This document shows, piece after piece, positions 17,296 through 47,178 of a stretch of DNA of 64,000 bases. Source of the DNA: an uncultured Acidimicrobiaceae bacterium (lineage in GTDB: Bacteria; Actinomycetota; Acidimicrobiia; Acidimicrobiales; Palsa-688); NCBI GenBank assembly GCA_963781155.1, contig CAWAEC010000001.1:14515-78514 (forward strand), in the 5' to 3' direction. A model generated the notes under the pieces. The model ran no database searches. It saw nothing but the letters and a program-made list of their open reading frames with translations, and was not told the origin of the DNA. A program made the translations under genes and the position numbers. How positions within the stretch are numbered: position 1 is the stretch's first letter; the number at the start of each line of letters is the position of its first letter.

Positions 17296-17967
17296 TCATC
17301 CACGTGAGTCGCTGCGGTTCTCGGTCCGGCGGACCGCATAGACGGCCGCCTCGGTCCGTCGACTCATTCCCAGTTTGGCCAGCAGATTGGACACATAGTT
17401 CTTTACCGTTTTCTCCGACAGGTACATTAGCTCGGCGATCTGCCGGTTGGTCAGCCCCTCAGCGATGTGCTCGAGAATCCGCTCCTCTTGGGGGGTCAGA
17501 TGGTTCTCACGAGGCTCGTCGCGCCGAGACCGGATGCGCTCCATGACCCGGGCGGTCAACTCAGGATCGAGCAGAGAGTGGCCGTTGGCCACCTTTCTGA
17601 TATCGCTCACCAGGTCCGAGGCCCCGACCTCTTTGAGGACGTAGCCCGAAGCACCGGCCATTATGGCATCGAAGAGCGCTTCATCATCCGAAAAGGAGGT
17701 GAGCATCAGGCAGGCCACCTCTGGGTGCATGGAGCGGACTTCCCGGCAAACCTCGACTCCGTTGCCGTCGGGTAGACGCACGTCGAGCACGGCGACACGG
17801 GGGGCGGTGGCCGCGATACCGGCGAGCGCTTCCTCGGCAGTGCCGGCCTCGCCGACCACCTCCATGCCACCGTCTGTCTCGAGGAGACTGCGCACACCTT
17901 GGCGGACCACCTCGTGGTCGTCGAGGAGGAACACCCGGATCTGGTCCTGACGGGCATCAGCGGTCAT
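17296..17967 (-). CDS. devR: DevR/DosR-like NarL/LuxR-family response regulator
   Basis: VFLLDDHEVVRQG, VAVLDVRLPDGNG, LTSFSDDEALFDAIMAGASGYVLK and EKTVKNYVSNLLAKLGMSRRTEAAV closely parallel the M. tuberculosis DevR sequence as I recall it. AAGGAG lies 6 nt upstream of ATG 17967. Confidence 0.9.
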   Translation of the reverse strand: MTADARQDQIRVFLLDDHEVVRQGVRSLLETDGGMEVVGEAGTAEEALAGIAATAPRVAVLDVRLPDGNGVEVCREVRSMHPEVACLMLTSFSDDEALFDAIMAGASGYVLKEVGASDLVSDIRKVANGHSLLDPELTARVMERIRSRRDEPRENHLTPQEERILEHIAEGLTNRQIAELMYLSEKTVKNYVSNLLAKLGMSRRTEAAVYAVRRTENRSDSRG

Positions 17968-18033
17968 CAGAGTTCTCCTTGGTAAACGGCGCGACGCCAC
18001 CCCGGAGGTGAGATCGCTGATTGGTCCTTGCGG

Positions 18034-18458: not shown

Positions 18459-19038
18459 CTAGGGCCGAACGGCCTTATCGGCGTCGCTACGAGCTCCCTC
18501 CACGCGAGTGGGCGCCGTCCACTGCACAAACGTGCCCTTCGGCTTGCGGGCGGTGACATGGAACTGGCCGCCGAGTGCCTCCGCCCGATCAGCCATCTTG
18601 GCCAGTCCGTGGCCGGCGCTGGGGCCGTCCGCCGGCCCGATGCCGTCATCGGCGACGCTCAACGTGACGCTCGCCGCGGTAGCTTGCACCACCACGTCCG
18701 CTCCCGAGGCCTGGGCGCGACGGCCATCTTGGGTGACCATGGGCCGGTAGGCTGCCCGGTCCGAACCCGCCTCGGCGGGCCTCGAGCAGCACCGTCGCTT
18801 GGCGCTCATGTCGACCAACACGACGGTTGGCCGACGAGCATCGAACGCGCCGAGAGCTCGTCCGCATCCACAGACGCGCCGAGAAGCTGGTCGGCGGCGC
18901 ATGCCCGACGCCATAACCGAACAACATCTCGACTCCCGCGCTGGCCATGTCGACGACACCCTGGTTGTCAACCACAACGACGGCATCCGGCGAACAAGCG
19001 AACAGCGCTCTCAAGAAACTCCCCGAATCCTCACTCAA
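18459..19038 (-). pseudogene. decayed PAS-GAF-HisKA_3 histidine kinase remnant (paralog of 31260..32823)
   Basis: Three pieces lie in different frames: PAS N-terminus (SPDAVVVVDNQGVVDMASAGVEMLFGY), a GAF piece (VLLEARRGGFGPG) and an HATPase C-terminus (VVVQATAASVTLSVADDGIGP). The H-box region is absent. Confidence 0.7.
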
Positions 19039-19818: not shown

Positions 19819-22521
19819 GTGACTGTTGGCCCCAATCCCATGACCTACGAATGCGACACCGTGTTGGCTGACGGAGGGACCGTCCACCTCCGGCCGATCC
19901 GCCCGGACGACGGCCCCGGGTTGGAGGCATTCCATTCCCGGCTTTCGCCGGAAAGCATCTACCTGCGGTTCTTCGGCTGCCACCCCCGGCTGAGCCCCTC
20001 CGAGGTCGAGCACTTCACGCACGTCGACGGCACCGATCGGATGGCGCTGGTGGCGACCCTACAGGGCGACATCGTGGGCGTGGCCCGCTACGACCGCCTT
20101 CCATCCTGCCCGACCGAAGCCGAGGTCGCGTTCGTGGTCAGCGACACCCACCAGGGCCGGGGGCTGGGCACGCTCTTCCTGGAGCACCTGGCCGCCTACG
20201 CCCGCGAGCAGGGCATTGAGGCCTTCGTGGCGGAAACACTCCCGCAAAACCGTCCCATGCGAGAAGTGTTCAGGAATGCGGGGTTCGCCGAGAATGCCCG
20301 CTGGCATAACGGGGTCATCGAGTTTCGAATGAACATACGCCCGTCTGCTGGCCTGGCGGAGGCGGTCGAGGCACGGGACCGATCAGCCACGGTCCATTCG
20401 ATCGGCGCATTGCTGCAACCCCGATCGGTGGCCGTCATCGGGGCCGGCCGCGGCCGCGGAACCATCGGCCACGAGATCTTTCACAATCTCCTCGCAGGTG
20501 ATTTCGCGGGTCCGGCCTACCCAATTCATCCCTCCGCCACGTCGGTGGCCGGAGTCAAGGCCTATCCCTCCGTCCTGGATGTTCCCGGCCCAGTGGACCT
20601 GGCGGTAATAGCCGTTCCTGGTGACCGAGTGGCAGGCGTAGTGGAAACGTGCGCCACGAAAGGGGTCAAAGGCGCCGTGGTCATCTCAGCGGGGTACGCC
20701 GAATCTGGCGCCGACGGCCAGTCCGGCCAGCATGACCTGGTCTGCCAGGCTCGGGGCGCAGGGATGCGGCTGATCGGGCCCAACTGCATGGGAATCATAA
20801 ACACCGCCCCGGACATATCGATGAATGCCACCTTCGCTCCGGTGCCGCCCACCCCTGGGCGGGTGGCGTTCGTGTCGCAGTCGGGTGGACTTGGCATCGC
20901 CAGCCTTGAGGAAGTCCGTCGCCGAGGCATAGGTCTGTCGTCATTTGTTTCGGTGGGCAACAAGGCTGATGTCAGCGGTAACGACCTGCTCCAGTATTGG
21001 GGCGAGGATGCCGATACAGACGTCATCCTCCTCTACCTGGAATCGTTCGGCAACGCCCGTCGCTTCGCTCGGATCGCCGGCGAGGTGTCACGCCTGAAGC
21101 CCATCGTGGCCTTGAAAGCCGGACGGACCGACTCGGGTCGAAGAGCTGCTTCTTCTCACACTGCGGCCCTGGCCACCTCGGACGCGGCTGTCGACGCGCT
21201 GTTCGCCCGAACCGGTGTCGTCCGGGTCGACACGCTGGAAGAGCTGTTCGACGTGGCTGAGGTCCTGGATGCTCAGCCGTTACCGGCCGGCCCCAAGGTG
21301 GCGATTGTCGGCAACGCCGGAGGGCCGGGCATCCTGGCCGCCGACGCCTGCGAAACTGCTGGCCTCGAAGTGCACGAGTTGTCAGCCGCCACGCAAGCTC
21401 AGCTTCGGTCGTTCCTGCCCGGCGCCGCCACCGTCACCAACCCTGTGGACATGGTGGCCTCAGCCTCGGCCGCCGACTACCGCCGAGCCCTTCGCCTGGC
21501 TCTCGACGACGACAACGTCGACGCCGTGGTCGCGATCTTTGCACCGCCCCTCGTCACCCAGGCCGACGATGTAGCCGTCGAGATCGCTGATCTGGCCCGA
21601 AGCGAAAGCAAACCCATCGTCGCCTGTTTCCTGGGCATGGCCGCACCTCCTGCTTCTCTCAGGAGCGCGGACGGGACCGTGCCCAGCTTCACCTTTCCAG
21701 AGCCGGCGGTCCGGGCCCTGGCCCGAACCTACCGCTACGCGCAGTGGTGCCGGCGCGACCCTGGACAATCCGTGCTCGTCGACGACACGGACACCGTGAC
21801 CGCCCGGGCCGTGATCCGCACAACCCTCGATCACCACCCGGACGGCAGTTGGCTGCCTCCGACCGAGGCGGCCCGCCTCCTGTCCGCCTATAAGATCCCT
21901 GTCGCCACAACTGAGTTCGCGCGAAGCGGGCCGGATGCAATCCGAGCCGCCCACCGCATCGGGTTCCCTGTCGCCCTCAAAGGCGGGGCCGCCGAGCTGG
22001 TGCACAAGACCGAAAAGGGAGCCGTGAGATTGTCGTTGCACTCGGACGCTGAGGTCGACGATGCCTTCTCAGCCATGGAACACGAGCTTGGAGAAGAAAT
22101 GGGGGGTGCCATCGTCCAACCCATGGCCAAACCCGGTGTCGAACTGATCGTCGGCGTCGTCCATGATCCGTCATTTGGCCCTATGGTCATGTTCGGCTCC
22201 GGCGGCACCGCCGTCGAGCTTTTCGGTGACCGGAGCATCCGGATTCTCCCGCTGACGGACACCGATACATCAGAGTTGGTTCGGTCTCTGCGCGCTTCCC
22301 CGCTCCTCCTCGGGTATAGAGGTACCAAGGGCGTCGACGTTCCCGCCCTCGAAGACCTGATAGCACGGGTCGCCAGGCTGGCGGAAGACAATCCCGAGAT
22401 CTCCGAAATGGACCTCAACCCCGTCATCGCCACCCCGGACGGCGTCGTAGCAGTAGACGTCAAGGTCCGGATCGCGCCACGCAACCCAGAACCGGACCCG
22501 ACCCTCCGAAAACTCCGTTAG
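19819..22521 (+). CDS. bifunctional GNAT acetyltransferase / NDP-forming acyl-CoA synthetase-like protein (Pat-type protein acyltransferase, GNAT at N-terminus)
   Basis: 900 aa. N-terminal GNAT (HQGRGLGTLFLEHL), then CoA-binding, succinyl-CoA-synthetase-like and ATP-grasp regions. GTG 19819 or ATG 19840 are possible starts. Confidence 0.9.
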   Translation: MTVGPNPMTYECDTVLADGGTVHLRPIRPDDGPGLEAFHSRLSPESIYLRFFGCHPRLSPSEVEHFTHVDGTDRMALVATLQGDIVGVARYDRLPSCPTEAEVAFVVSDTHQGRGLGTLFLEHLAAYAREQGIEAFVAETLPQNRPMREVFRNAGFAENARWHNGVIEFRMNIRPSAGLAEAVEARDRSATVHSIGALLQPRSVAVIGAGRGRGTIGHEIFHNLLAGDFAGPAYPIHPSATSVAGVKAYPSVLDVPGPVDLAVIAVPGDRVAGVVETCATKGVKGAVVISAGYAESGADGQSGQHDLVCQARGAGMRLIGPNCMGIINTAPDISMNATFAPVPPTPGRVAFVSQSGGLGIASLEEVRRRGIGLSSFVSVGNKADVSGNDLLQYWGEDADTDVILLYLESFGNARRFARIAGEVSRLKPIVALKAGRTDSGRRAASSHTAALATSDAAVDALFARTGVVRVDTLEELFDVAEVLDAQPLPAGPKVAIVGNAGGPGILAADACETAGLEVHELSAATQAQLRSFLPGAATVTNPVDMVASASAADYRRALRLALDDDNVDAVVAIFAPPLVTQADDVAVEIADLARSESKPIVACFLGMAAPPASLRSADGTVPSFTFPEPAVRALARTYRYAQWCRRDPGQSVLVDDTDTVTARAVIRTTLDHHPDGSWLPPTEAARLLSAYKIPVATTEFARSGPDAIRAAHRIGFPVALKGGAAELVHKTEKGAVRLSLHSDAEVDDAFSAMEHELGEEMGGAIVQPMAKPGVELIVGVVHDPSFGPMVMFGSGGTAVELFGDRSIRILPLTDTDTSELVRSLRASPLLLGYRGTKGVDVPALEDLIARVARLAEDNPEISEMDLNPVIATPDGVVAVDVKVRIAPRNPEPDPTLRKLR

Positions 22522-22629
22522 CCCAAAGATCCGCCACGAAAAATCGGGACCAAGGCGTCGACGTGGTGACGGGGGTGGACGTCCAACCGGCCGCGTGCAT
22601 TCCCCACGATCGGACGATCCGGGTGCGGC

Positions 22630-29694: not shown

Positions 29695-30753
29695 TCACGG
29701 GTTCAGTCCCTCTGTTCTCGACAGGACCACCTTGAGGGCGCCGGTCTCTGCTGGATCGGCAAAGACCTCGTACGCCTGGGTGAACTCGTCCAGAGGGAAG
29801 CGGTGCGTGACGAAGCGATCCGCGTCCAGCTGATTTCCCTGCAGCAGGCGCAGAAATGTCGGCGTGGAGAACGTATCCACTAGACCGGTGGTAATGGTCA
29901 CGTCTTTGATCCACAGGTCTTCCAGGTGGAGCGTCGCCGGCTCGCCGTGAACACCTATGTTGGCTACGTGCCCACCGGGTCGTACCAGTGCCGTGGCCAG
30001 CTCGAAGGCTGTCGACGTTCCGACGGCTTCTATCGTCACATCGGCACCGAGTCCGCCGGTTAAAGCGGCCACGGCAGCCAAAGGATCCTCACAGCCGTTA
30101 TTGACGGTCACGTCTGCTCCGAATTGCTTCGCCGCCTCGAGCCGGCTGCTGGCCAGATCAATGGCGACGACGTGCGCCGGGCTGTACAGCCGGCTGCCCA
30201 TGATTGCGGCCAGCCCGATCGGTCCGGCGCCGACGACCGCGACCACGTCGCCGGGCCGAACTCTTCCATTGAGCACACCGACCTCGTATCCGGTCGGAAG
30301 GATATCGGCGACCATGAGCAGCGCTTCGTCGCTGACGCCGTCTGGGGCTGGATATGTAGATGTGTCCGCGTAGGGTACCCGGACGTACTCCGCTTGGGTG
30401 CCGTCGATCAGGTGCCCTAGGATCCAGCCACCGCCACCCCGGCATTGCCCATAGTGCCCCTCCCGGCAGTATCGGCAGGTGGCGCACGAGGTGATGCAGG
30501 ACACGAGGACCTTATCGCCCGGCTTTAGCTGCTTGACCGCGGTGCCGACTGACTCGACCATCCCGACGGCTTCGTGGCCGAGGATCCGGCCGTCCGTCAC
30601 GGCAGGCACGTCACCTTTGAGGATGTGGAGATCCGTCCCGCAAATGGTGACGGCGTCGACCCGGACGATGGCGTCGGTATCGGCCTGCAGCCGGGGCTTC
30701 GGGACCTCTTCCCACGCCTTCTTTCCGGGACCGTGGTACACGAGCGCTTTCAT
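29695..30753 (-). CDS. zinc-dependent alcohol dehydrogenase (MDR family)
   Basis: ICGTDLHI, GHEAVG, VVGAGPIGL. Confidence 0.9.
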   Translation of the reverse strand: MKALVYHGPGKKAWEEVPKPRLQADTDAIVRVDAVTICGTDLHILKGDVPAVTDGRILGHEAVGMVESVGTAVKQLKPGDKVLVSCITSCATCRYCREGHYGQCRGGGGWILGHLIDGTQAEYVRVPYADTSTYPAPDGVSDEALLMVADILPTGYEVGVLNGRVRPGDVVAVVGAGPIGLAAIMGSRLYSPAHVVAIDLASSRLEAAKQFGADVTVNNGCEDPLAAVAALTGGLGADVTIEAVGTSTAFELATALVRPGGHVANIGVHGEPATLHLEDLWIKDVTITTGLVDTFSTPTFLRLLQGNQLDADRFVTHRFPLDEFTQAYEVFADPAETGALKVVLSRTEGLNP

Positions 30754-31259: not shown

Positions 31260-32823
31260 CTAAGGGGTGCGGCCACGGTCTCTACCCTTGTGAGTCGGGA
31301 CCGCCCACTGCAGCAAAGTGCCGGTCGGCTTGCGGGCAGTGATGCGTAGCTCGCCGCCGAGTTGCGCAGCCCGATCAGCCATGTTGACCACCCCATGCCC
31401 GGCACTGGGGCTGTCCGGTGGCCCGATCCCATCGTCGGCGACGCTGAGTGTCACGCTGGCTGCAGTGGCCTGTACCACCACATCGGCTCGCGATGCGTGG
31501 GCGTGACGAACCACGTTGGTCAATGCTTCGCGAGTTACCGCCAGCAGGTGGGTCATGGTCTGGTCCGAAATGGCCGCCTCCACCGGTCCTCTGAAGGTCA
31601 CCCGGGGTGTGAAGTCGAGCTGGCTACCGACCTCGGCCACCACCTCGCGGAACTCGTTGCCGTACGCCGAGCTCGGCCGTCTGGGGCCGATTGAGGTCGA
31701 AGATGGTCTCGCGGATATCCCGTATCACCTCGTCAATTGCTTCGACGGCCTCTACGATCCGGTCGCTGACACGAGGATCCGCCAGGCGCTGAGCACTCTG
31801 CAAGCGCATCCCCAAGGCAAAGAGTCGCTGAATGACAGTGTCGTGCAGGTCGCGAGCGATTCGTTCATGCTCCGACACCATGTGCAGGTCCTCCACGGCG
31901 TCCCGCGCCGCGCCGAGGGCGATGCCCACCGCGGCGGCCGAGGCGAACACCTCTACGGCCGCCACCTCCTCGTGGGTGAAACACTCGGCGCCAGCGTCAC
32001 GAGCGACAACCAAGGCTCCGATCGGTTTGTTCTGGGTCAGCATAGGCAGGTAGACGCCCGGCCCGAAACCGTCTCGTCGCGCCTCGCTCAGCACTGCCGG
32101 TTCAGCGCTCATGTCCAGGAGAACTACGGGCTGGCCTGCTCGCATTGCCCCGGCCGACAGGCTCGTTTGGGCGTCCAAAGAGGCACCGACGAGCAGGTCG
32201 GCGCTGCGGCCCGACGCCGCCGTCACCACCAGTCGATCGGGGTCGGTCTCGTCGGGGACCACCACCCAGGCCGCCGAGGCGCGCACCAGCCGCTGCGCCC
32301 GCTCCGAGACTGCCGTCAGGATGTCGGTGACGTCCTCACCCGCCAGCACTTGCCGGGTCACCTCGTTGACGTCCCGCATCAAGTGTTCACTGCGCCGCCT
32401 GCTGGTGGCATCGCGAACGAACGCGGCCGTACGAACGCGCCCGTGGAGGCGGAGCGGGGTCAGGCTGACGTCGACGGGAAAGACGCTGCCGTCTCGGCGA
32501 CGCCCGTGCAGTTCCAACCCCGCGCCCATGGCTCGGGGCACCGGGTCCTTGCTGTAGCTGGCCCGATAGTCCCGATGGACATGCCTGACCCGATCCGGGA
32601 CCAGCATCTCTATCGGCTGCCCCACCACCTGCTCGGTGCGATACCCAAACAGCGTCTCCGTCGCGGCGCTGGCCATCTCGATGCGACCTTGCTCATCGAC
32701 AACCACCACAGCGTCCGGCGAAGAAGCCATCAGCGCATCCGAGAGGTTGCTCAAGTCCTCGCTCACTGGCGTAGATAGTAGGGCGTCAGCGAACCGTCCC
32801 AGAGCGCTCCGCTGATTACCCAC
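31260..32823 (-). pseudogene. PAS-GAF-HisKA_3-HATPase sensor histidine kinase, split by one frameshift
   Basis: ORF 31624..32823 carries PAS, GAF and the H-box HERIARDLHDTVIQRLFA. ORF 31260..31643 carries ALTNVVRHAHAS...DDGIGP. The frames overlap at 31624-31643, and removing one C near 31655 restores ...LGVRNEFREVVAEVG. Confidence 0.75.
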
Positions 32824-34196: not shown

Positions 34197-34213
34197 GGCG
34201 GGAACCGGGCACC

Positions 34214-34319
34214 GAGAAGAAGGAAGCATTCTGATGACAATACTGACGCTGTTGCCATATTGGGTGATCCGTCCGAGCGAACAAACCCGCGGGTGTGGGA
34301 ATGGGTGAAGCAATCGAAG
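34214..34319 (+). pseudogene. duplicated 5' fragment of the DoxX gene (RBS plus about 28 codons)
   Basis: GAGAAGAAGGAAGCATTCTGATGAC...GGTGATCCGTCCGAGCGAACAAACCCGCGGGTGTGGGAATGGGTGAAG nearly matches the reverse complement of 38200-38304. Confidence 0.7.
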
Positions 34320-34692
34320 CATCCTGGCCGCCGACGCCTGCGAACGCCCTCGAAGTGCACGAGCTATCGCCGGTCCACTCAAGTTCAGCTTCGGTCGTTC
34401 CTGCCCGCCGCTGCTACCGCCAGTAACCCCGTAGACATGGTGGCCTCAGCCTCGGCCGCCGATTACCGCCGAGCCCTTCGCCTAAGCTCTCAATGACGAC
34501 GACGTCGACGCCGTGGTGGCGATCTTTGCACCGGCCCTGGTCACCCCGGCCGATGAGGTGGCCGCCGAGATCGCCGAAATGCACCTCAACCCCGTCACCG
34601 CCTCCCCCGATGGCGTGGTCGCAGTTGACGCCAAAGTGCGAATCGCCCCACGCCACCCAGAGCCAGATCTCGCGCTCCGGGAACTCCGTTAG
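34320..34692 (+). pseudogene. remnant of a Pat-like acyltransferase gene with internal deletions
   Basis: Nucleotide-level similarity to 21330-21590 and 22395-22521. Encodes NPVDMVASASAADYRRALRL...DAVVAIFAP...NPVTASPDGVVAVDAKVRIAPRHPEPD and the same terminal ...LR-TAG. Confidence 0.7.
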
Positions 34693-34851
34693 CCCACGGC
34701 GGCGGTCGGGGACGCGTTCCCGTGGAAGCAGAACGGGGTTTGGAAGTCCACCACCGCCACTGGGAGGGGGCGGCTGTGACGTTCGCCTCTATTGATCTGC
34801 GACGCGGCGAGCGCAGACTGGACGAACTAAGGATAACTGGGAGGTTCAGAC

Positions 34852-35412: not shown

Positions 35413-36405
35413 CTATTTCGGTGGTGCTGATGGAGCCATATTGGTCAGAGGGTGATCCCGGTAGTAGTCGCGCCAGATGATCTTGTAGATCGGTATCCAT
35501 CGTGGTATCGATCGCACGCCGGGGATGATGGGGACCAGGATGAGGGCGAGGGACAGGATCATCATGATCGCCCACACCAGGGCGTCGGCGTTGCCGGAGG
35601 TTTTGAACGGGGATATCTGGTACCAGAAGGTGTACAGCCACAGCCAGGCTTGGCCCGGGTAGCTGCCGGTCTCGTTCATGATGCCCCACTGGTCACCGCC
35701 GAGATGTTGGACGTTGGCCAGGTTGCCCAGGTAGGTGCCGTCGGCCAGGAACAGGAGGGGTTTGGTGTAGTTGTCCTGGTAGAAGCCGCTGCCCTGGTTG
35801 ACCAGTTGGCTGTTGAGGGCGCCGCTTTGGGCCAGGCGGAGCAGGGCCGCGGTCATGGCCGGTACCGGGCCGTAGTTGCCGGGGGCGACCTTGGCCGGGT
35901 CGTTGCCGGGGGCTTTGGAGATGGCGGTGTCGTAGGCGCTGGCCCAGGCCTGCTGCTGGCTGGTGCTGGCGTTGCGGTAGGCAGCCAGGGCGGCAGTAAG
36001 GGCAGGGTTGCCGGTGACTGTGGACAGGGGGGCCAGCACGAAATCGACCGCGGGGTCGACGGGTAGGCGCACGCCGGCCCAGTTTTGCAGGTGCAGGAAG
36101 AAGATCGACTGGCCGGTGCCGGCCTGGTTGTAGGGGGGTCCGTAGGAGGCGCTGGTGCTGGTCCCGTCGAGCTCGGTGACAGCGGTGGTGACGAAGTCGG
36201 CCGGGTCCTGGCGGCCCCACTGTTGCAGAGTAATGGCCTTGTCGTCGGGGGAGGACAGCACCAGGGCGGCGATCACCGCGACCAGGCCGACCACGATCAG
36301 GGCGATCACGAATTCCTTGACCAGGTCGTAAGGGCGTTTGGGTCCGGTCCACTGTCCCGCACTGGTCCGTCGCCGGTGACGGCGAGAGGGTGTCGGTTCG
36401 CTCAC
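35413..36405 (-). CDS. membrane protein resembling cytochrome b subunit IV / C-terminal domain with a large extracytoplasmic insertion
   Basis: GTG 36405 overlaps the cytochrome b stop (GTGA). N-terminal TM, then about 200 aa of soluble Cys-free sequence, then AWLWLYTFWYQISPF where PEWYFLFAYQ normally sits, then further TM helices. Confidence 0.7.
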   Translation of the reverse strand: MSEPTPSRRHRRRTSAGQWTGPKRPYDLVKEFVIALIVVGLVAVIAALVLSSPDDKAITLQQWGRQDPADFVTTAVTELDGTSTSASYGPPYNQAGTGQSIFFLHLQNWAGVRLPVDPAVDFVLAPLSTVTGNPALTAALAAYRNASTSQQQAWASAYDTAISKAPGNDPAKVAPGNYGPVPAMTAALLRLAQSGALNSQLVNQGSGFYQDNYTKPLLFLADGTYLGNLANVQHLGGDQWGIMNETGSYPGQAWLWLYTFWYQISPFKTSGNADALVWAIMMILSLALILVPIIPGVRSIPRWIPIYKIIWRDYYRDHPLTNMAPSAPPK

Positions 36406-37064
36406 CGGTCGCGCTTGCCGTCGCTGGTGGGCCCGCCGTCCGCGTCGATGCCGACCGGCGGTACCACACCCCGGATGCGCACCAACACCACGTGCAACAC
36501 CACGATAATCCCCACGCCCAGTGGGAGCAGCATGATGTGCCACAACAGCATCTGGCCCAGGTTGAGGACATTCCAGAACGCCCCCACCCCGGTGCTGTTG
36601 ATCCCGTCTTTGGCCTGGGTGGCGATCCATTGCGAGTCGAAGTTGGTCTGGACCACATAGCCGGTGAAGGCGGTGGCGACCGACACCAAGAAGGCCACCA
36701 CCCCCGTCACCCAGGTCAGCCCGCGCCGGCCTCGCCAGGCCGCCATCCAGAACTTGCCCCACAAGTGAATGACCATGAAGAAGAAGAACAGCTCCACGCT
36801 CCACAGGTGCAAGCTGTTGAAGAAATGCCCGACCGCGGTGGTGTGCCACCAGTTGATCCCGCCCAGAGCCAGCACCGCACCCGAGACGATGATGAAGACC
36901 AGCGCGGCCAGGGTGAGCACCCCGAACACATAGATCCACGACGACACATAGGCCGGCTGGTGGTCGGGAAGAGCCCGGTCCGGGGGCAAAGCCGACAGCA
37001 GCCGGTCCCGGACACGACCCGTCCAGCTGCCGCCAGGTCGCTCCGACACCGGAGTGGCGGTCAC
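36402..37064 (-). CDS. cytochrome b (b6-type N-terminal four-helix di-heme domain)
   Basis: His pairs H-x13-H (LHLWSVELFFFFMVIH) and H-x14-H (HIMLLPLGVGIIVVLH). GTG 37064 overlaps the upstream stop (GTGA). Confidence 0.85.
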   Translation of the reverse strand: MTATPVSERPGGSWTGRVRDRLLSALPPDRALPDHQPAYVSSWIYVFGVLTLAALVFIIVSGAVLALGGINWWHTTAVGHFFNSLHLWSVELFFFFMVIHLWGKFWMAAWRGRRGLTWVTGVVAFLVSVATAFTGYVVQTNFDSQWIATQAKDGINSTGVGAFWNVLNLGQMLLWHIMLLPLGVGIIVVLHVVLVRIRGVVPPVGIDADGGPTSDGKRDR

Positions 37065-37204
37065 GGCCGGTTCCTTCCCCCCGGGAACGGAGCGAACAGG
37101 GCCACCACGAACACCACGATCATCAACACGATGACAATAAAATTCGCCAGCGACAGCTGGACGAACCCCCAGTGGATGAAATAGCCGGGGCTGTTCAAGT
37201 TCAC
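37061..37204 (-). CDS. small membrane protein, first gene of cytochrome b operon
   Basis: ...GYFIHWGFVQLSLANFIVIVLMIVVFVVALFAPFP. Start is uncertain: GTG 37204, or the ORF continues up to 37363. Confidence 0.5.
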   Translation of the reverse strand: MNLNSPGYFIHWGFVQLSLANFIVIVLMIVVFVVALFAPFPGGRNRP

Positions 37205-37666
37205 GGCCAGCAACCCACCCGAGGACGCGGCACTGACCACCAGCCACCTCCCGGCAACTCTCGCAAATCTACCAACGAATGTAATGACCGACGTGCACGG
37301 GCTGGGGGATCCCCCACCGGACGGGCACGCCGTCCAGGACACGAGCGGCGAACGATCGGGCATCGATCACCGCGGTCCCTGAGCGACAGGCGGTGGCGCG
37401 AGCCTGAAGGCCGCACTTTGCCACCGCCGAGCGGCTCCGTTCAGACCTACGTCGCGGGATTAGGGGGTTCCGACCCGATATCCGATGCCGTTGGATCAGC
37501 AAAGGTCGAAGTCGGGCTCGCCGATACGGCCGCACCCGGGCTGCCGTGGCGACGAGGTCGTCAGCCAACTAAAGAAACAGTTTTGCGGGAGCGGCCTCTG
37601 GACGCGCCAGTGCGGCCCGCGGGGAGCGGACCGCACCAGTGTGACGTGACCGAGGCAGCGGACCGG

Positions 37667-38284
37667 CTAGGCGGCCGTCTTGACCGCAGCAGCGGTCCCG
37701 GTCCCGTCGCCCTCCCCGGCGAGGGAGTCGTGGCGGGGCGGGCCGTGGCGGCGCTGGCGGTAGCCGGCGATGAGCCCGTCGATGCCGATCCAGCTCGAGG
37801 TCCTCCACATGGTCAGGATGACGATGGCGAACAGGGCGTAGAAGGCGCACACGCTGGCCGTGCCCGACATCACGTAGGTGAACAGCAGGGCCAGGCTGCC
37901 CAGCGCCGCCACTCGGGTGAACAGGCCGGCCACCAAAGCGAAGCCGATCACCAGCTCGGACACCGCGATCAGCACGCCGATCCAGCCCGAGTTGGGGACC
38001 ACGAAGCTGTGCAGGAAGCTACCCCACCAGGTGTAGGCCGGCTTGGCGTGGCCGGCGAAACCGGCCACCCCGGCCCCGTTATGGTGCAAAAAGGCGGCGT
38101 TCTCCGCCCCCCACAGCTTGGCCCAGCCAGCCTGGATCCACATCACCCCCAGCCACACCCGCATAGCCAGCCATCCCACCGCCAAGACCTTCGATTCCTT
38201 CACCCATTCCCACACCCGCGGGTTCGTTCGCTCAGACGGATCACCCAAAACGGCAACCGCATCACTCGCCACAGTATTCGTCAT
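37667..38284 (-). CDS. DoxX family membrane protein
   Basis: Four TM helices. MRVWLGVMWIQAGWAKLWG pattern. GAAGGAAG RBS. Confidence 0.9.
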   Translation of the reverse strand: MTNTVASDAVAVLGDPSERTNPRVWEWVKESKVLAVGWLAMRVWLGVMWIQAGWAKLWGAENAAFLHHNGAGVAGFAGHAKPAYTWWGSFLHSFVVPNSGWIGVLIAVSELVIGFALVAGLFTRVAALGSLALLFTYVMSGTASVCAFYALFAIVILTMWRTSSWIGIDGLIAGYRQRRHGPPRHDSLAGEGDGTGTAAAVKTAA

Positions 38285-38364
38285 CAGAATGCTTCCTTCT
38301 TCTCCGTGGCCCGGCTCCCGCGGGCCTCACCGTCATCCTCGCCGCCGGCCCGGGTCCGCCAGTA

Positions 38365-38580: not shown

Positions 38581-39145
38581 ATGAAGGCGATCACTCACCA
38601 GTTCTGGGGGAAAGGACGTGGGAGGAAGTCCGCAAGCCGGTGTTGCGGACGGATATCGACGCCGTAGTCAGAGTGGACGCGGTCACTATCTGCGGAACCG
38701 ACCTGCACATCCTTAAACGCAACGGCCCCACGGCCACCGACGGGCGCATCCTCGGCCACGAAGCAGTCGGAACCGTCGAGTCCGTCGGTGCTGGCGTCAA
38801 GAACGTCCAGCCCGGCGAAAAGGTCCTGGTCTCGTGCATCACGTCGTGTGGCGGATGTCGGCCATCTTGGGCAGCCGGCCGTACAGCTCAGCCCACGCGG
38901 TAGCCGTCGACCTGGCCGCCATGTGGCTCGAGGTCGCCAAACAGCTCGGCGCCGACATCACCGTCAACAACGAGTGAAAAGACCCCGCACTGGTCCTAGC
39001 CGCCTTGACCGACGGGCTCGGCGCCGATGTCGCCATCGAGGCAGTCGGCGTCCGCGGCAGCTCCGGGGGACGGTCGAGGTCAACGGCCGGCCCGTTCCCG
39101 GCCCCCGGCAACCCCGTATGGCACCATGGTCCTGCGACGGGGTGA
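38581..39145 (+). pseudogene. decayed paralog of the Zn-ADH gene
   Basis: MKAITH, then a frameshift into ...DAVVRVDAVTICGTDLHILK...GHEAVGTVESVG...SCITSCGGC. About 100 codons are deleted, then AVDLAAMWLEVAKQLGADITVNNE-TGA-KDP...GADVAIEAVG. The 3' end is missing. Confidence 0.75.
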
Positions 39146-39172: not shown

Positions 39173-39790
39173 ATGACTCAGCCGGGCTTTGCGCAGGTTC
39201 CGGGCTACCCCGTCGAGTTCGACGTCGAGCCCCAGCTGACCGAGCGCAACCGACTCACCACCGGGTTCCGGCTGATCCTCGGGATCCCCCAGTTCATCAT
39301 CGTCGGCGGGTTCAACTCCTACGGCGCGTCGGCGTTGACCGGGGCGGCGTCGGTCATGGCGTTCATCTCCTGGTTCGCCGTCGTGTTCAGGGGCGAAGAA
39401 CCCCGCGGCTTGTGGGATTTCATCACGTACTACATGCGCTGGTGGGTGCGCGTCGCCGCGTACGCCGCCCTGTTGAGGGACGACTACCCGCCGTTCGGCG
39501 ACGAGCCCTATCCGACCACCTACGGGGTGACATACCCGGCGGGAACGAGGAACCGCCTGTCGGTGGGTCTCCGCCTGATCTACGTGATCCCCCACGTCGT
39601 CGTCCTCATCTTCGTGAACATCGCGTGGACGGTGACGACGATCATCGCCTGGTTCGCGATCCTCTTCACTGGTGCCTACCCGGCGGGCCTGTACCGGTTC
39701 GCGGTAGGGGCCATGCGCTGGAACGCCCGTGTCCAGTCCTACCTGCTCCTGCTGCGGGACGAGTACCCGCCCTTCCGCCTGGCGGCGTGA
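39173..39790 (+). CDS. DUF4389-like membrane protein
   Basis: Duplicated motif RLILGIPQFIIV / RLIYVIPHVVVL, and AWFAILFTGAYP...LLLRDEYPPF. Confidence 0.85.
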   Translation: MTQPGFAQVPGYPVEFDVEPQLTERNRLTTGFRLILGIPQFIIVGGFNSYGASALTGAASVMAFISWFAVVFRGEEPRGLWDFITYYMRWWVRVAAYAALLRDDYPPFGDEPYPTTYGVTYPAGTRNRLSVGLRLIYVIPHVVVLIFVNIAWTVTTIIAWFAILFTGAYPAGLYRFAVGAMRWNARVQSYLLLLRDEYPPFRLAA

Positions 39791-39981: not shown

Positions 39982-40469
39982 ATGAAGGCGTTCGTCTTCC
40001 GATCGTACGGCTCACTGGAGGCCTTGGATCTCATAGGCATCGACAAGCCCGTGCTCGGGGAGACGAAGTGCTGGTCCGGGTGAGCGCCACCTCTGTCAAC
40101 CCCTAGGACCGGCACAGCATGAGAGGCGAGCCGTTCATCGCCCGCCTAATGGGCCTCGGGCTGCGCCACCCAAAGCTCCGCATCTTGGGCGCCGACGTGG
40201 CGGGGCAGGTCGAGGCGGTGGGCAAGGACGTGACGGTGTTTCGAGCGGGCGATGAGGTGTTCGCGGTGCTCAAGCAGGGCGGCTTCGCCGAGTACGTGTG
40301 TGTCCAGGAAGACGAACTGGCGCCGAAATCGAAGAACCTGTCGTTCGACCAGGCGGTGGCGGTACCGATGGCGGCCAATACCGCCCTGCTGGGCCTGCGC
40401 GACGAGGGACGGATTCAGCCGGGCCAGAAGGTCCTGATCAACGGGGCTTCGGGAATGTGGGTACCTTGA
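39982..40469 (+). pseudogene. MDR-family NADPH:quinone oxidoreductase-like gene (frameshift, in-frame TAG, 3' truncation)
   Basis: MKAFVFRSYGSLEALDL..., a frameshift, then DEVLVRVSATSVNP-TAG-DRHSMRGEPF...GADVAGQVEAVG...VLINGASG, then homology stops. Confidence 0.7.
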
Positions 40470-44425: not shown

Positions 44426-47178
44426 CTAGCCGGTGTTGCGAAGCCCGGCTGCGATGCCGTTGATGGTGAGCAGGAGGGCCCGCTCGAGTTCGGGGTCGGT
44501 GCGGTTCGACGTGCGGCGTCTGGCGAGCAGGTCGGCTTGCAGGTAGTGCATCGGCGCAAGGTAGGTCGCCCTGGTCGTTAGCGTCCGACGGAGCATGGGA
44601 TGACCGTCGAGCAGCGCCGGTGTTTGGAGGAGCCGGAGGAGTTCGTCAATGGTGTTCCTGTGCTCTTGGACGATGCGTTCGAAAATATGACGCAGGGAAG
44701 GGTCTACCAGCCGATCGACATAGAGCCGGGCGATGTCAAGGTCGGTCTTGAACAGTGCCATCTCTACGTTCGCCAGGAATGTCGGAAAGAAGTGCCACTG
44801 CTGGACCATCTCATCGAGCGTCCCTTCGAGTCCAGCCTTTCGGGCGGCGCGCAGACCTGACCCGACGCCGTACCACCCTGGGACGATCTGCCGGGACTGC
44901 GTCCAGCCGAACACCCAGGGGATGGCTCGGAGGTCAGCGAGGTCACGAGAGGCTTCGGTCGTGCGGCGGGCCGGTCGTGAGCCGATGTTGAGCCCAGCCA
45001 TCTCCTGGATAGGCGTAGACGCCAAGAAGTAGTCGACGAGGTCCTGGTGGTCCACCAACCGCCGGTAGGCGTCCAGGCTGGCTTCCGCGACAACGGTCAT
45101 GGCCTCGTCCCACCGTTCAAGCACCGGCTGGGGATGCCGAGATGTCCGGTGCAGGAGCGACGCTCGCAGCACCGCGGCGACGGTCGTCTCCAGGTTCGAT
45201 CGTGCCAACTCGGCCAGCAAGTACTTGTCCGATATGACCTCGCCCTGCTCAGTGATCTTGATCGTGCCGTTGACGGTCCGAAACGGCTGCGCCAGGATGG
45301 CCCGGCCCGTCGGTCCGCCGCCGCGGCCGACGGTGCCGCCCCGGCCATGGAAGAGCCGCAGGGTGACGTTGTGCGCGTCGGCTACGTCACGCAGGGCCCG
45401 CTGGGCTTGGTGGATAGCCCACGCCGAGGCAGTGATGCCGCCGTCCTTGTTGGAGTCGGAGTAGCCGAGCATGACCTCCTGGGTCTCGCCGCGCAATGTC
45501 ACGACCCGCCGGTAGGACGGCTCCTGTAGAAGCTCGCCGAGCAGATCGCCAGCCGATCGCAGGGCGTCAATGGTCTCAAGCAGGGGAACAAAACCGATAC
45601 GGGCGACGCCGGCGGTGAGATCGACCAAACCGGCGTCGCGGGCCAAAACGACGGCGGCGAGGACGTCGTCGACTCCTTTCACCATTGAGACGACGTAGCT
45701 CTCAATCGCCTCGTCGCCGAAGTTGTCGAGGGCGCGGCGGATCGTTGTGAACACCGCCATGGTTGCCGCCGTGTCATCATCGAGAGTCGTCGTCGGAAGG
45801 GCAAGAGGTCTTCCGCCAGCGAGGTCCTGGGCCAGCCTGCGGGTGCGATCGGGGCCATCGAGGACGGCATATGGGGGCTCAGAGCCGAGGCGGTCAAAAA
45901 GCATGCTGATCGGCGTGGAAGTGACGGCCGGCATGCTCGCGCACGTCCATGGTGGCGAGTTGCAGACCGATGGCGCGGGTTGTCCGGAGCGCCCTGCCGA
46001 CCGTCCCCTCCGCGATCAGTCCACCACGGTTGGCGAACAGTGACCGGTGCAGTACCTCCAGCTCGGCGATAACCTCGTCGGCGCCCGCGTAGTCAAAACC
46101 GGGTCGGTGCGGACCATCGCTTGCCGCCCGGCCGGACTGTGGCCACCAGCCGCTCCCGGATGTAGGAGCATTTGAGACGGTACGGCTCGTCGGCGTCGAG
46201 GCGATGCCACCGTTCGAACACCCATGGCAGCAGCTCACGGTCGCGTTCGAGGTCCTCAACCAGTTCGCTCGATACGCCAACGGCCCGTGTGGAGATGCTG
46301 AGGTCATCGATGAGGGCGTCCATTACTTCGAGCAACGCGCCCAGGGCGTGCTGGCGCTGGAGCTTGAGCACCGCCAGGGTGATCTCGGGCGTGACGTACG
46401 GGTTGCCGTCGCGGTCGCCGCCGACCCATGTGCCGAATCGCAGCGGCCGGCCGGTCATGGGCAGATCGATCCCGAGACGACGAAGCTGGAAGGCGAGGTC
46501 GTCGAGCAGGTCAGGCAGGACAGCGCTGGCCAGCTCGTCCAGGAAGAAGAGCGTCGCCCGTGCTTCGTCGGTCGGGGTCGGTCGCTCCCGCCGTACCTCC
46601 TCGGTCTGCCACAGCAAGTCCACCACACGGGACAGCCCCCGTTCGGCTCGCTGCCGATCGGCATCCGAAGAACGCGGGTCGGACCGCTGTCGGAGCAGGG
46701 CCGCCACCCGTCGGCGATGCATGAGGATAGAGGTGCGTGACGACTCGGTCGGGTGGGCGGTCAGCACCGGACGGACGTCCAGGCGCCCAACCATCTCCGC
46801 CACGAAGGACGGGTCGAGGTTCGCAGCCACGATGTCGTCAACCGTGCGCTCTAGGGCGCTCGTCGCCACCAGCGATCGCTGGGTGAGCTCGTCGGCCCGG
46901 TAAACCTGTTCGGCGATGTTGGCGAGGTGGAAGTAGCCGAGGAACGCCCGTATGAGAAGCGTCGCTGTCTCGATATCGGCACTCGCCAAAGTTTGCCCGA
47001 GTCGCCGTCGGGCAATCGGGTCCGATAGCGCTGCCTTGGACTCGACGCGCACCCGCTCGACGAGATCGAGAAGGTAACGACCCTCCTGCCGGACTAACGA
47101 CTCGCCCAGCAGCTCGCCGAGGAACCGGATGTCGTCACGTAGAGCTCGATCAGCCGGATCGCCGTCAGCAATCTCCAT
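44426..47178 (-). pseudogene. ppc: phosphoenolpyruvate carboxylase, interrupted by two frameshifts
   Basis: N-terminal ORF 46093..47178 (LRDDIRFLGELLG), middle ORF 45894..46307, C-terminal ORF 44426..45934 ending GLRNTG. The second shift is at the A5 run 45896-45900. Confidence 0.85.

Follow-up and report, generated by a model that had tools for sequence, protein, structure and literature searches.

A cytochrome b-like three-gene operon without Rieske or cytochrome c partner genes in an uncultured Acidimicrobiaceae bacterium and other soil Actinobacteria

INTRODUCTION

Few membrane proteins have been studied as thoroughly as cytochrome b, and to our knowledge it is almost always discussed within Rieske/cytochrome b complexes. 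Here we describe three minus-strand genes, named g1, g2 and g3, that lie at positions 35413–37363 of a 64 000 nt stretch (hereafter the window) of contig CAWAEC010000001.1 from an uncultured Acidimicrobiaceae bacterium, and that would encode a relative of the b6/subunit IV core acting independently of any Rieske protein or cytochrome c. We put at roughly one in two the probability that this trio forms a NarI-like menaquinol half loop used in hypoxia or dormancy.

The cytochrome b cores of the b6f complex (PetB/PetD) and of the Bacillus-type QcrB/QcrC complex are split after helix D, at the same point as g2 and g3. The b6-type proteins have H-x13-H and H-x14-H spacing and the motifs R-x-R..TWVTG and VR.RG..PP in common with g2, and helix E, the PEWY helix and helix F of PetD can be aligned collinearly with the ends of g3. 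The trio departs from both split cores in having no Rieske protein, no cytochrome f/c and no CxGG cysteine, in reading QTNF rather than PWGQ in the cd loop, and in possessing an extra single-helix subunit, g1; compared with PetD, g3 has two helices rather than three, would carry an insertion of 200 residues ahead of the PEWY position and most likely reads TFWY there. A Rieske subunit, a c-type cytochrome and a PxW[Y/F] motif are defining features of Rieske/cytochrome b complexes, and the trio fails in all three.

The QcrB subunit of the actinobacterial bcc-aa3 complex (PDB 7q21_B) belongs to the same superfamily and the same phylum, and g2 matches it weakly (E-value, 5.6e-4), but QcrB is long, with eight helices, and its gene belongs to qcrCAB, which also encodes a Rieske protein and a di-haem cytochrome c, whereas the trio is short, split and unlinked. 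ExtP provides a precedent for b6-like proteins that work without a Rieske subunit, and its model (NF040969) is the best NCBIfam match of g2 (E-value, 5e-12); the score of 46 bits compares with a cutoff of 290, so that g2 is not an ExtP equivalent, and the genes of ExtP-type systems are accompanied by those of multihaem c-type cytochromes or of catalytic subunits, whereas the trio has no co-encoded partner. NarI/FdnI and the cytochrome b561/MsrQ proteins have two stacked b haems that span the membrane from a quinone site to the other face and are functional analogues of the mode that we propose, although their folds and families are unrelated to the trio and their soluble partners or substrates are known. 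Among cytochrome b homologues, subfamilies K, H and G′ have been recognized without an assigned function (PMC5600118), and these resemble the trio in their unclear role outside the classical Rieske/cytochrome b complex. Subfamily K has lost a haem-ligand histidine (PMC5600118), whereas the trio family keeps all four; subfamily H could include fused forms of the trio family. Searches of the literature turned up no account of the g3 domain, of the g1 subunit or of the dormancy-island context, and Hyp730/Rv1234 (PMC7856521) proved to be unrelated to the trio.

RESULTS AND DISCUSSION

Organization of the trio

The three genes are coupled by 4 nt overlaps, with the TGA stop codon of g1 (37063–37061) overlapping the GTG start of g2 (37064–37062) and the stop codon of g2 (36404–36402) overlapping the GTG start of g3 (36405–36403), so that both junctions read GTGA, as a first-pass annotation made from the sequence had described. 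These overlaps recur in distant relatives, and the order small gene, cytochrome b N-domain gene, g3 homologue was seen in every neighbourhood inspected by gene calls. For a survey of gene context we clustered the open reading frames (ORFs) from 80 related loci, each taken with 8 kb on either side. A g2 gene is called in 67 of these loci and a g1 gene in 58, while the flanks are variable, with different flanking genes even between relatives that are 89 % identical; the neighbours differ in order and orientation, and none is a constant fourth member of the operon. The trio travels as a self-contained operon.

The g2 and g3 segments are joined in the natural fusion proteins P0090, P0091, P0102 and P0246, and P0245 (639 aa) is a natural fusion of all three in the order g1, g2, g3. 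These fusions indicate that the three genes encode one membrane complex and act as one unit, and that g3 is an obligate partner of g2. Two further apparent fusions are uninformative: P0277, with a patatin part, looks like a frameshifted mis-call, and the extra part of P0248 is a low-complexity cytoplasmic tail only. This tail of 230 residues follows the g3 part and is rich in RRR(I/V)AELE repeats.

The ratio of non-synonymous to synonymous substitution rates (dN/dS), computed against relatives at 65–90 % amino acid identity, is 0.15–0.17 for g2 and g3 (0.16 for g2, the g3 value coming from the single comparison with locus L007), 0.155 for the outer domain of g3 and 0.3–0.4 for g1. The pattern points to purifying selection on all three genes.

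Table 1. Positions of the trio, its parts and selected other features in the window
Feature	Position	Strand	Description
g1	37061–37240	−	Small subunit, 59 aa from GTG 37240 (probable start)
g2	36402–37064	−	220 aa; b6-type cytochrome b N-terminal domain (helices A–D)
g3	35413–36405	−	330 aa ORF
g2 H86	36807–36809	−	Predicted haem ligand, from alignment to b6
g2 H100	36765–36767	−	Predicted haem ligand, from alignment to b6
g2 H176	36537–36539	−	Predicted haem ligand, from alignment to b6
g2 H191	36492–36494	−	Predicted haem ligand, from alignment to b6
g3 N-terminus	36259–36405	−	Basic cytoplasmic tail, R-P-Y-D-L-V-K-E, helix ~28–49 (putative helix E equivalent)
g3 outer domain	35659–36252	−	Residues ~52–249, Cys-free, all-alpha
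g3 C-terminus	35413–35658	−	YPGQAWLWLYTFWYQISPF, GNAD, helix 273–293, VPIIPGVRSIPRW, basic amphipathic tail, stop codon
Shine–Dalgarno-like GGGAGG	37247–37252	−	6 nt before GTG 37240, read from the sequence
Perfect 14 bp palindrome TGGGGGATCCCCCA	37303–37316		Candidate operator overlapping the −35 position
NarL/DosR-type regulator	17296–18000		Neighbour in the window
GNAT-ACS	19819–22521		Neighbour in the window; GNAT-fused ADP-forming acetyl-CoA synthetase

The cytochrome b domain of g2

The g2 protein exceeds the gathering scores of two Pfam models (PF00033 and PF13631), with 43.7 bits for Cytochrom_B_N_2 (cutoff 27) and 34.7 bits for Cytochrome_B (cutoff 27.2). Its best NCBIfam matches are to b6-type proteins, far below the equivalog cutoffs, and its best match among PDB sequences is cytochrome b6 (1q90_B; E-value, 4e-8). 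The histidine pairs H86/H100 (H-x13-H) and H176/H191 (H-x14-H) align to H86/H100/H187/H202 of this b6, and all four are conserved at 99–100 % among 195 family sequences. Pfam scores, b6 alignment and histidine pairs agree in upholding the earlier description of the second gene as a 220 aa, b6-type di-haem cytochrome b, a description for which conservation of the histidine pairs had been named as a check. The protein thus appears to be a four-helix cytochrome b domain with both bis-histidine haem sites intact. The CxGG cysteine on helix A that serves haem c_n is absent, and since g2 has no cysteine at all a haem c_n site is not expected.

Several further residues of g2 are invariant in a family-specific manner, again at 99–100 % in the 195 sequences. 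These are H74 in a P-side loop, the membrane-embedded E91 of helix B, and Q139, N141, D143, Q145, W146, K152, D153 and N156 of a polar cd loop that reads QTNFDSQW..KDGIN. The number of g2 homologues is comparable to that of g3.

The ends of g3 weakly resemble helices E and F

In the structural model, g3 has helices at residues 28–49, 253–262 (short) and 273–293, with about 200 residues between the first and the second. It contains no cysteine, and the sequence AWLWLYTFWYQ precedes the second transmembrane helix. Within the C-terminal part, YPGQAWLWLYTFWYQISPF, with its WY at residues 261–262, would be the equivalent of the ef helix and helix 273–293 that of helix F. Residues Y26, D27 and E31 are invariant among close homologues, and P250, G251, W254, Y262, Q263, D274, P292, P295 and P301 are invariant or nearly so.

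Searches of Pfam, NCBIfam and PDB sequences with g3 gave no match, whether a single sequence, a 50-member profile or a 21-member diverse profile was used; hits to SafA in 25 of 50 members (best E-value, 0.0014) are short transmembrane-segment matches and were dismissed. A weak similarity emerged when g3 profiles were compared, using hhalign, with a PetD alignment built from database proteins. Whole g3 gives a single local match, of residues 258–300 to PetD residues 76–120 (E-value, 0.016; probability 3 %), corresponding to the stretch from the PEWY helix through helix F to the VPFIE of PetD, and its score lies above those of 100 out of 100 column shuffles. With the middle ~200 residues removed, and with a more diverse family alignment (A8, 31–48 % identity), the ends of g3 are collinear with PetD over 105 columns (E-value, 0.0018; score 24.8; probability 15 %), a score reached by none of 90 shuffles within 10-column blocks (13.7±3.3, maximum 24.2). 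Here the R-P-Y-D-L-V-K-E segment and first helix of g3 lie on the W-P-N-D-L-L-Y segment and helix E of PetD, W261-Y262 lies on the W-Y of PEWY, and N272, the following helix and VPFIPG lie on PNK, helix F and VPFIE; the region of PetD matched by the g3 C-terminus spans residues 74–132.

Topology, the order of parts in the fusions and the collinear PetD match together argue that g3 is the C-terminal half of a split cytochrome b. We find moderate support for reading it as helix E, ef loop and helix F with a 200-residue insertion in the ef loop, and it would on this basis supply helices E and F to the complex; helices G and H are absent, g3 having two helices rather than three or four. The first-pass annotation had likened the ends of g3 to subunit IV, which the fusions and the ends-only match favour although the similarity is weak and the Pfam model of the C-terminal domain is not matched. 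It had also read the PEWY position as AWLWLY without a glutamate. The lack of glutamate holds, but in the profile alignment the position is most likely T259-F260-W261-Y262, a few residues further on, where tyrosine (with the next glutamine) is near-invariant, tryptophan is replaced by leucine, isoleucine, proline or methionine in distant members, and the proline and acidic residue of PEWY are missing.

The outer domain of g3 and the small subunit g1

The sequence and the PetD alignment support the earlier observation of about 200 cysteine-free extracytoplasmic residues ahead of the PEWY position. Motifs within this domain, YGPPYN, DFV..PL, Q..W, YGPVP, SG.L and L.G..WG..NE.G.YPG, are kept down to 31 % identity. 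As an insertion in the P-side ef loop the domain would lie over the pocket where a Rieske head docks. H234 is the only histidine invariant among close relatives, and a haem or metal site made of H234 and M242/M243 was rejected because these residues are not conserved in relatives at 31–48 % identity. Conservation across the wider family reveals no set of histidine, cysteine or methionine ligands and no cofactor motif, from which it seems more likely that the domain caps or gates the pocket than that it carries a cofactor. With it, g3 defines a large protein family for which there is no Pfam model.

The open frame of g1 extends to an ATG at 37363, giving 100 aa, and the added stretch is not conserved. 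The homologues are 54–62 aa long (54–59 aa among called genes), conservation begins near LAVNLNSPGY in a consensus of 60 sequences, and a Shine–Dalgarno-like GGGAGG stands at 6 nt spacing from GTG 37240; on these three grounds the true start is probably this GTG, and the 100 aa ORF is over-extended. In the alignment of upstream regions the box is GGGAGG in loci L001, L007 and L008 and appears as CGGAGG in the row of the window. The small transmembrane protein of the first-pass annotation is thus indeed a one-helix protein, but its start at 37363 was probably placed too far upstream. The protein has a motif LN-x4-Y-x-HW, one transmembrane helix and a C-terminal PFPGGRNRP. In the fusion P0245 the linker runs from the C-terminus of g1 to the N-terminus of g2, which is cytoplasmic, so that the LN-x4-Y-x-HW motif is predicted to be on the outer face. 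The protein is a third, single-helix, integral subunit, which the first-pass annotation had not recognized.

Absence of linked Rieske and cytochrome c genes

No CxxCH or Rieske motif is present in any plausible ORF of the 64 kb window. Across the 80 loci, CxxCH occurs in three, each time as a single motif in an unrelated ORF, and a Rieske-like motif in one; near P0002 there is a non-conserved Rieske/LigXa_C gene of the oxygenase type. The claim that neither a Rieske protein nor a cytochrome c is co-encoded is therefore sustained well beyond this genome. The neighbours were also named correctly, in that Pfam matches identify a DoxX gene upstream (E-value, 8e-8) and a convergent Flavodoxin_5 gene downstream (E-value, 3e-7). 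As conserved partners both were rejected, neither recurring in the 80 loci.

At loci L014, L047 and L057 (and in clusters c24 and c35) a ferric-reductase-like membrane protein and/or a NuoF-like flavoprotein (Complex1_51K with 4Fe-4S) adjoins the trio. This pair looks like another small membrane redox module.

Distribution and dormancy-gene context

Homologues of g3 number more than 6500 at an E-value of 1e-3 or below among the candidates scored, forming 1204 clusters at 50 % identity, and a scan of one genome per species found the family in at least 592 species genomes. The closest relatives (89 and 86 % identity) are in metagenome-assembled genomes (MAGs) of uncultured Acidimicrobiaceae. Other carriers are Streptomyces, Kitasatospora, Amycolatopsis, Actinoplanes, Solirubrobacterales, Frankiales, Kineosporiaceae, Gaiellaceae and one Chloroflexota MAG. 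Among soil Actinobacteria the trio is widespread. A search of plasmids gave no copy.

When the neighbours in the 80 loci were ranked, leaving aside the trio itself and antisense shadows, a NarL/DosR-type response regulator headed the list (23 loci), followed by a tandem universal stress protein (USP), often directly after g3 (19), a GAF-GAF histidine kinase (14), a Pyr_redox_2 flavoprotein (13), a PNPOx-like protein (12), a GNAT-fused ADP-forming acetyl-CoA synthetase, GNAT-ACS (11), phosphoketolase (8), and acetate kinase and the ferric-reductase-like membrane protein (6 each). Smaller clusters of three to five loci each contain phosphofructokinase, GAPDH, alcohol dehydrogenase, P-type ATPases and the NuoF-like protein. 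The window, besides the regulator and GNAT-ACS genes of Table 1, carries a CBS/BON protein, a PNPOx-like protein, a GH65 phosphorylase, an alcohol dehydrogenase, a PAS-GAF kinase and a tandem USP. About 29 of the 67 loci that were mapped have dormancy-type neighbours, and these represent several actinobacterial orders; the trio is repeatedly embedded in DosR/OsdR-like dormancy islands, a setting that the first-pass annotation had not noted.

A DevR-like core, defined as GGGWC-N4-GWCCC with at most one mismatch within 240 nt upstream of g1, is present at 11 of 57 loci; random windows of the same loci gave 2.5±1.5 (maximum 7) and shuffles 4.8±2.2 (maximum 10). In the window as a whole this core is not enriched (11 found, 25 expected).

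Proposed function

From what is known of the cytochrome b family, the trio would exchange electrons with the menaquinone pool across the membrane via its two b haems. Menaquinol could be oxidized in a remodelled P-side pocket to which g2 contributes the polar cd loop and H74, g3 the WY helix and N244/E245, and g1 the HW motif, the whole being capped or gated by the outer domain of g3. Protons would be released on the outside, and the two haems would conduct electrons from the P side to the N side, where the acceptor would be a soluble cytoplasmic flavoprotein or else a quinone bound at a Qi-like site close to D27 of g3. The complex would serve cells in hypoxia or dormancy, and in some lineages a DosR-type regulator would control it. 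We hold the analogy with the NarI half loop at low-to-moderate confidence. The earlier annotation had spoken of a quinol-interacting module rather than a bc1 or b6f complex; the latter part stands, with no Rieske or cytochrome c gene in the window and no PxW[Y/F] motif in g3, and the interaction with quinol is what we infer from the family.

A number of observations weigh against this proposal. The quinone site is itself a prediction, and if one quinone pool were both donor and acceptor there would be no driving force for a P-to-N loop, so that another acceptor would be required. The canonical elements of the Qo site are lost, PWGQ of the cd loop being QTNF and PEWY being TFWY. As to g3, hhalign probabilities for the match to PetD are only 3–15 %, and Cytochrom_B_C (PF00032) matched none of 50 family members even at an E-value of 10 or below. 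AlphaFold2 models have a mean predicted local distance difference test (pLDDT) score of 62.5 for a g2+g3 concatenate (23-row alignment) and 65.6 for g3 alone (50 rows), too low for the packing of the helices to be judged; larger mixed alignments (A2 and A4) were misaligned by MAFFT and were discarded. In Foldseek searches of the PDB the concatenate found weak cytochrome b/b6 matches (E-values, 7e-3 to 0.35; TM ~0.2) and the low-confidence g3 model (pLDDT 65.6) found none; these outcomes carry no weight either way. Under half of the loci have dormancy-type neighbours, and many of those that do are from related Solirubrobacterales. No DevR-like box was found upstream of g1 in the window, and across the loci the regions upstream of g1 show no enrichment of the full 20-mer DevR consensus of Mycobacterium tuberculosis. 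Within the outer domain, pLDDT reaches about 85–93 only at residues ~60–80 and ~120–190.

Electrons might instead flow outwards, menaquinol being oxidized at a Qi-like site on the cytoplasmic side and the electrons delivered to an extracytoplasmic acceptor bound by the outer domain of g3, much as in MsrQ, ferric-reductase-type or cytochrome b561 proteins. As acceptor one may think of a metal ion, of superoxide or another oxygen species, a redox protein of the cell envelope, or an extracellular electron sink in hypoxia. The strong polar conservation on the P side (H74, Q139, N141, D143, Q145, K152, D153 and N156 of g2, YGPPYN and NE.G.YPG of g3, and the HW motif of g1) exceeds what a hydrophobic quinol pocket would need, a sink would be useful in the hypoxic setting suggested by the gene context, and transmembrane reductase modules of the Ferric_reduct and NuoF-like type lie near the trio at a few loci. 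An outer domain lacking a conserved ligand set or cofactor motif is nevertheless a poor candidate for such an acceptor site; the 80 loci hold no conserved gene for a secreted partner, and no structural match points to a binding function. We regard export of this kind as unlikely, while taking it seriously.

It is likewise doubtful, but deserves mention, that the trio is an unrecognized respiratory enzyme whose catalytic or acceptor site is formed by the outer domain, g1 and the P-side histidine/polar cluster. If so, hypoxic, non-growing cells would need neither oxygen nor nitrate nor a cytochrome c chain to shed menaquinol electrons or to hold their membrane potential, and the trio would be the missing electron sink of the DosR-type dormancy programme.

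A non-respiratory haem protein that signals or stores instead of conducting a net flow of electrons, sensing redox state or gas at the membrane or handling haem, with the outer domain as an envelope-contact module, would suit the frequent proximity of GAF sensor kinases, NarL-type regulators and USPs, and would need no catalytic partner, none being encoded. We consider it rather improbable, however, for the trio has no signalling output domain, the fusions seen include none to a kinase or regulator, and the full two-haem, four-histidine geometry is typical of electron conduits.

Some genomes are known to have several genes for cytochrome b, with Rieske genes that are unlinked (PMC5600118), and one could suppose that the trio replaces the cytochrome b of the bcc complex in hypoxia, borrowing QcrA (Rieske) and QcrC (di-haem c). 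Retention of a b6-like core with its R-x-R and TWVTG motifs would agree with this, but the trio is not linked to a Rieske or cytochrome c gene across the 80 loci, helices G and H are absent, the proline and glutamate of PEWY and the PWGQ of the cd loop are gone, and the 200-residue insertion would sit where the Rieske head must dock; such an isoform seems very improbable. That the trio is a decaying remnant of a bc complex without function in this genome, as the broken genes and rearrangement scars of the surrounding island might suggest, is effectively refuted by three intact frames with dN/dS of 0.15–0.4, by the breadth of the family (more than 6500 homologues in at least 592 species genomes) and by the conserved overlaps.

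As a menaquinol half loop or otherwise, the trio family keeps the two-haem core of cytochrome b while dispensing with Rieske protein, c-type cytochrome and the canonical motifs for quinol oxidation, and it gains a conserved outer domain without detectable relatives and a dedicated small subunit. For the evolution of bc complexes it offers a natural example of a cytochrome b core that apparently works alone. For the question of how obligate aerobes such as Streptomyces and relatives of the mycobacteria, when starved of oxygen, balance membrane potential and quinone pool, the trio is a concrete candidate on account of its recurrence in DosR/OsdR-like islands beside fermentative and stress genes.

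Sequences upstream of g1

From the perfect palindrome TGGGGGATCCCCCA it is about 19 nt to a downstream −10-like hexamer, TACATT (37278–37283), and about 63 nt to the start of g1. Its core GGGATCCCCCAG and the TACATTC stretch are kept in L001 and L008, whose upstream sequences are otherwise unalignable, and it is a candidate operator for some regulator. A role as a regulon-wide box in the window was rejected, this being its only exact copy there.

A different motif, (A/T)AACTACGGA or CCGTAGTT(A/C)CC, is shared by many loci, mostly of Solirubrobacterales, about 60–110 nt upstream of g1 (L017, L025, L026, L032, L034, L035, L038, L039, L042, L044, L051, L055, L056, L072 and L083). Among 7-mers upstream of g1, AACTACG is found at 8 loci and CTACGGA at 11, with about one expected. 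The motif may be a lineage-specific promoter or operator, or may reflect just common ancestry.

Other features of the window

Between the USP and flavodoxin-like genes is a scar (34207–34696) in which an inverted copy, 91–94 % identical, of the DoxX ribosome-binding site and first ~25 codons (38189–38311) occupies 34207–34319 and is joined at 34319 to an 82–100 % copy of stretches from the 3′ part of GNAT-ACS (21329–22525). The segment looks like a pseudogene made by recombination. Both genes for DosS-like sensor kinases look broken. Only PAS and HATPase fragments are left of the one beside the response regulator (18459–19038), and in the other (31260–32823) PAS-GAF-HisKA_3 is encoded at 31624–32823 and the ATPase part in another frame at 31260–31643; both may be real pseudogenes or may result from indel errors in the assembly. 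The phosphoenolpyruvate carboxylase gene is split, with profile positions 1–344 in 46093–47178 and 423–919 in 44426–45934, through a frameshift, a deletion or an assembly error. Just upstream of DoxX lies a truncated, inverted paralogue of the zinc alcohol dehydrogenase gene at 29695–30753 (38617–38985 versus 30083–30716, 72–75 % identity), and a second ADH_N fragment is present at 40119–40469; these fragments, too, point to duplication and decay in the island. A tandem DUF4389 membrane protein gene (39173–39790) has a G+C content at third codon positions of 0.93, compared with ~0.76–0.84 in most other ORFs.

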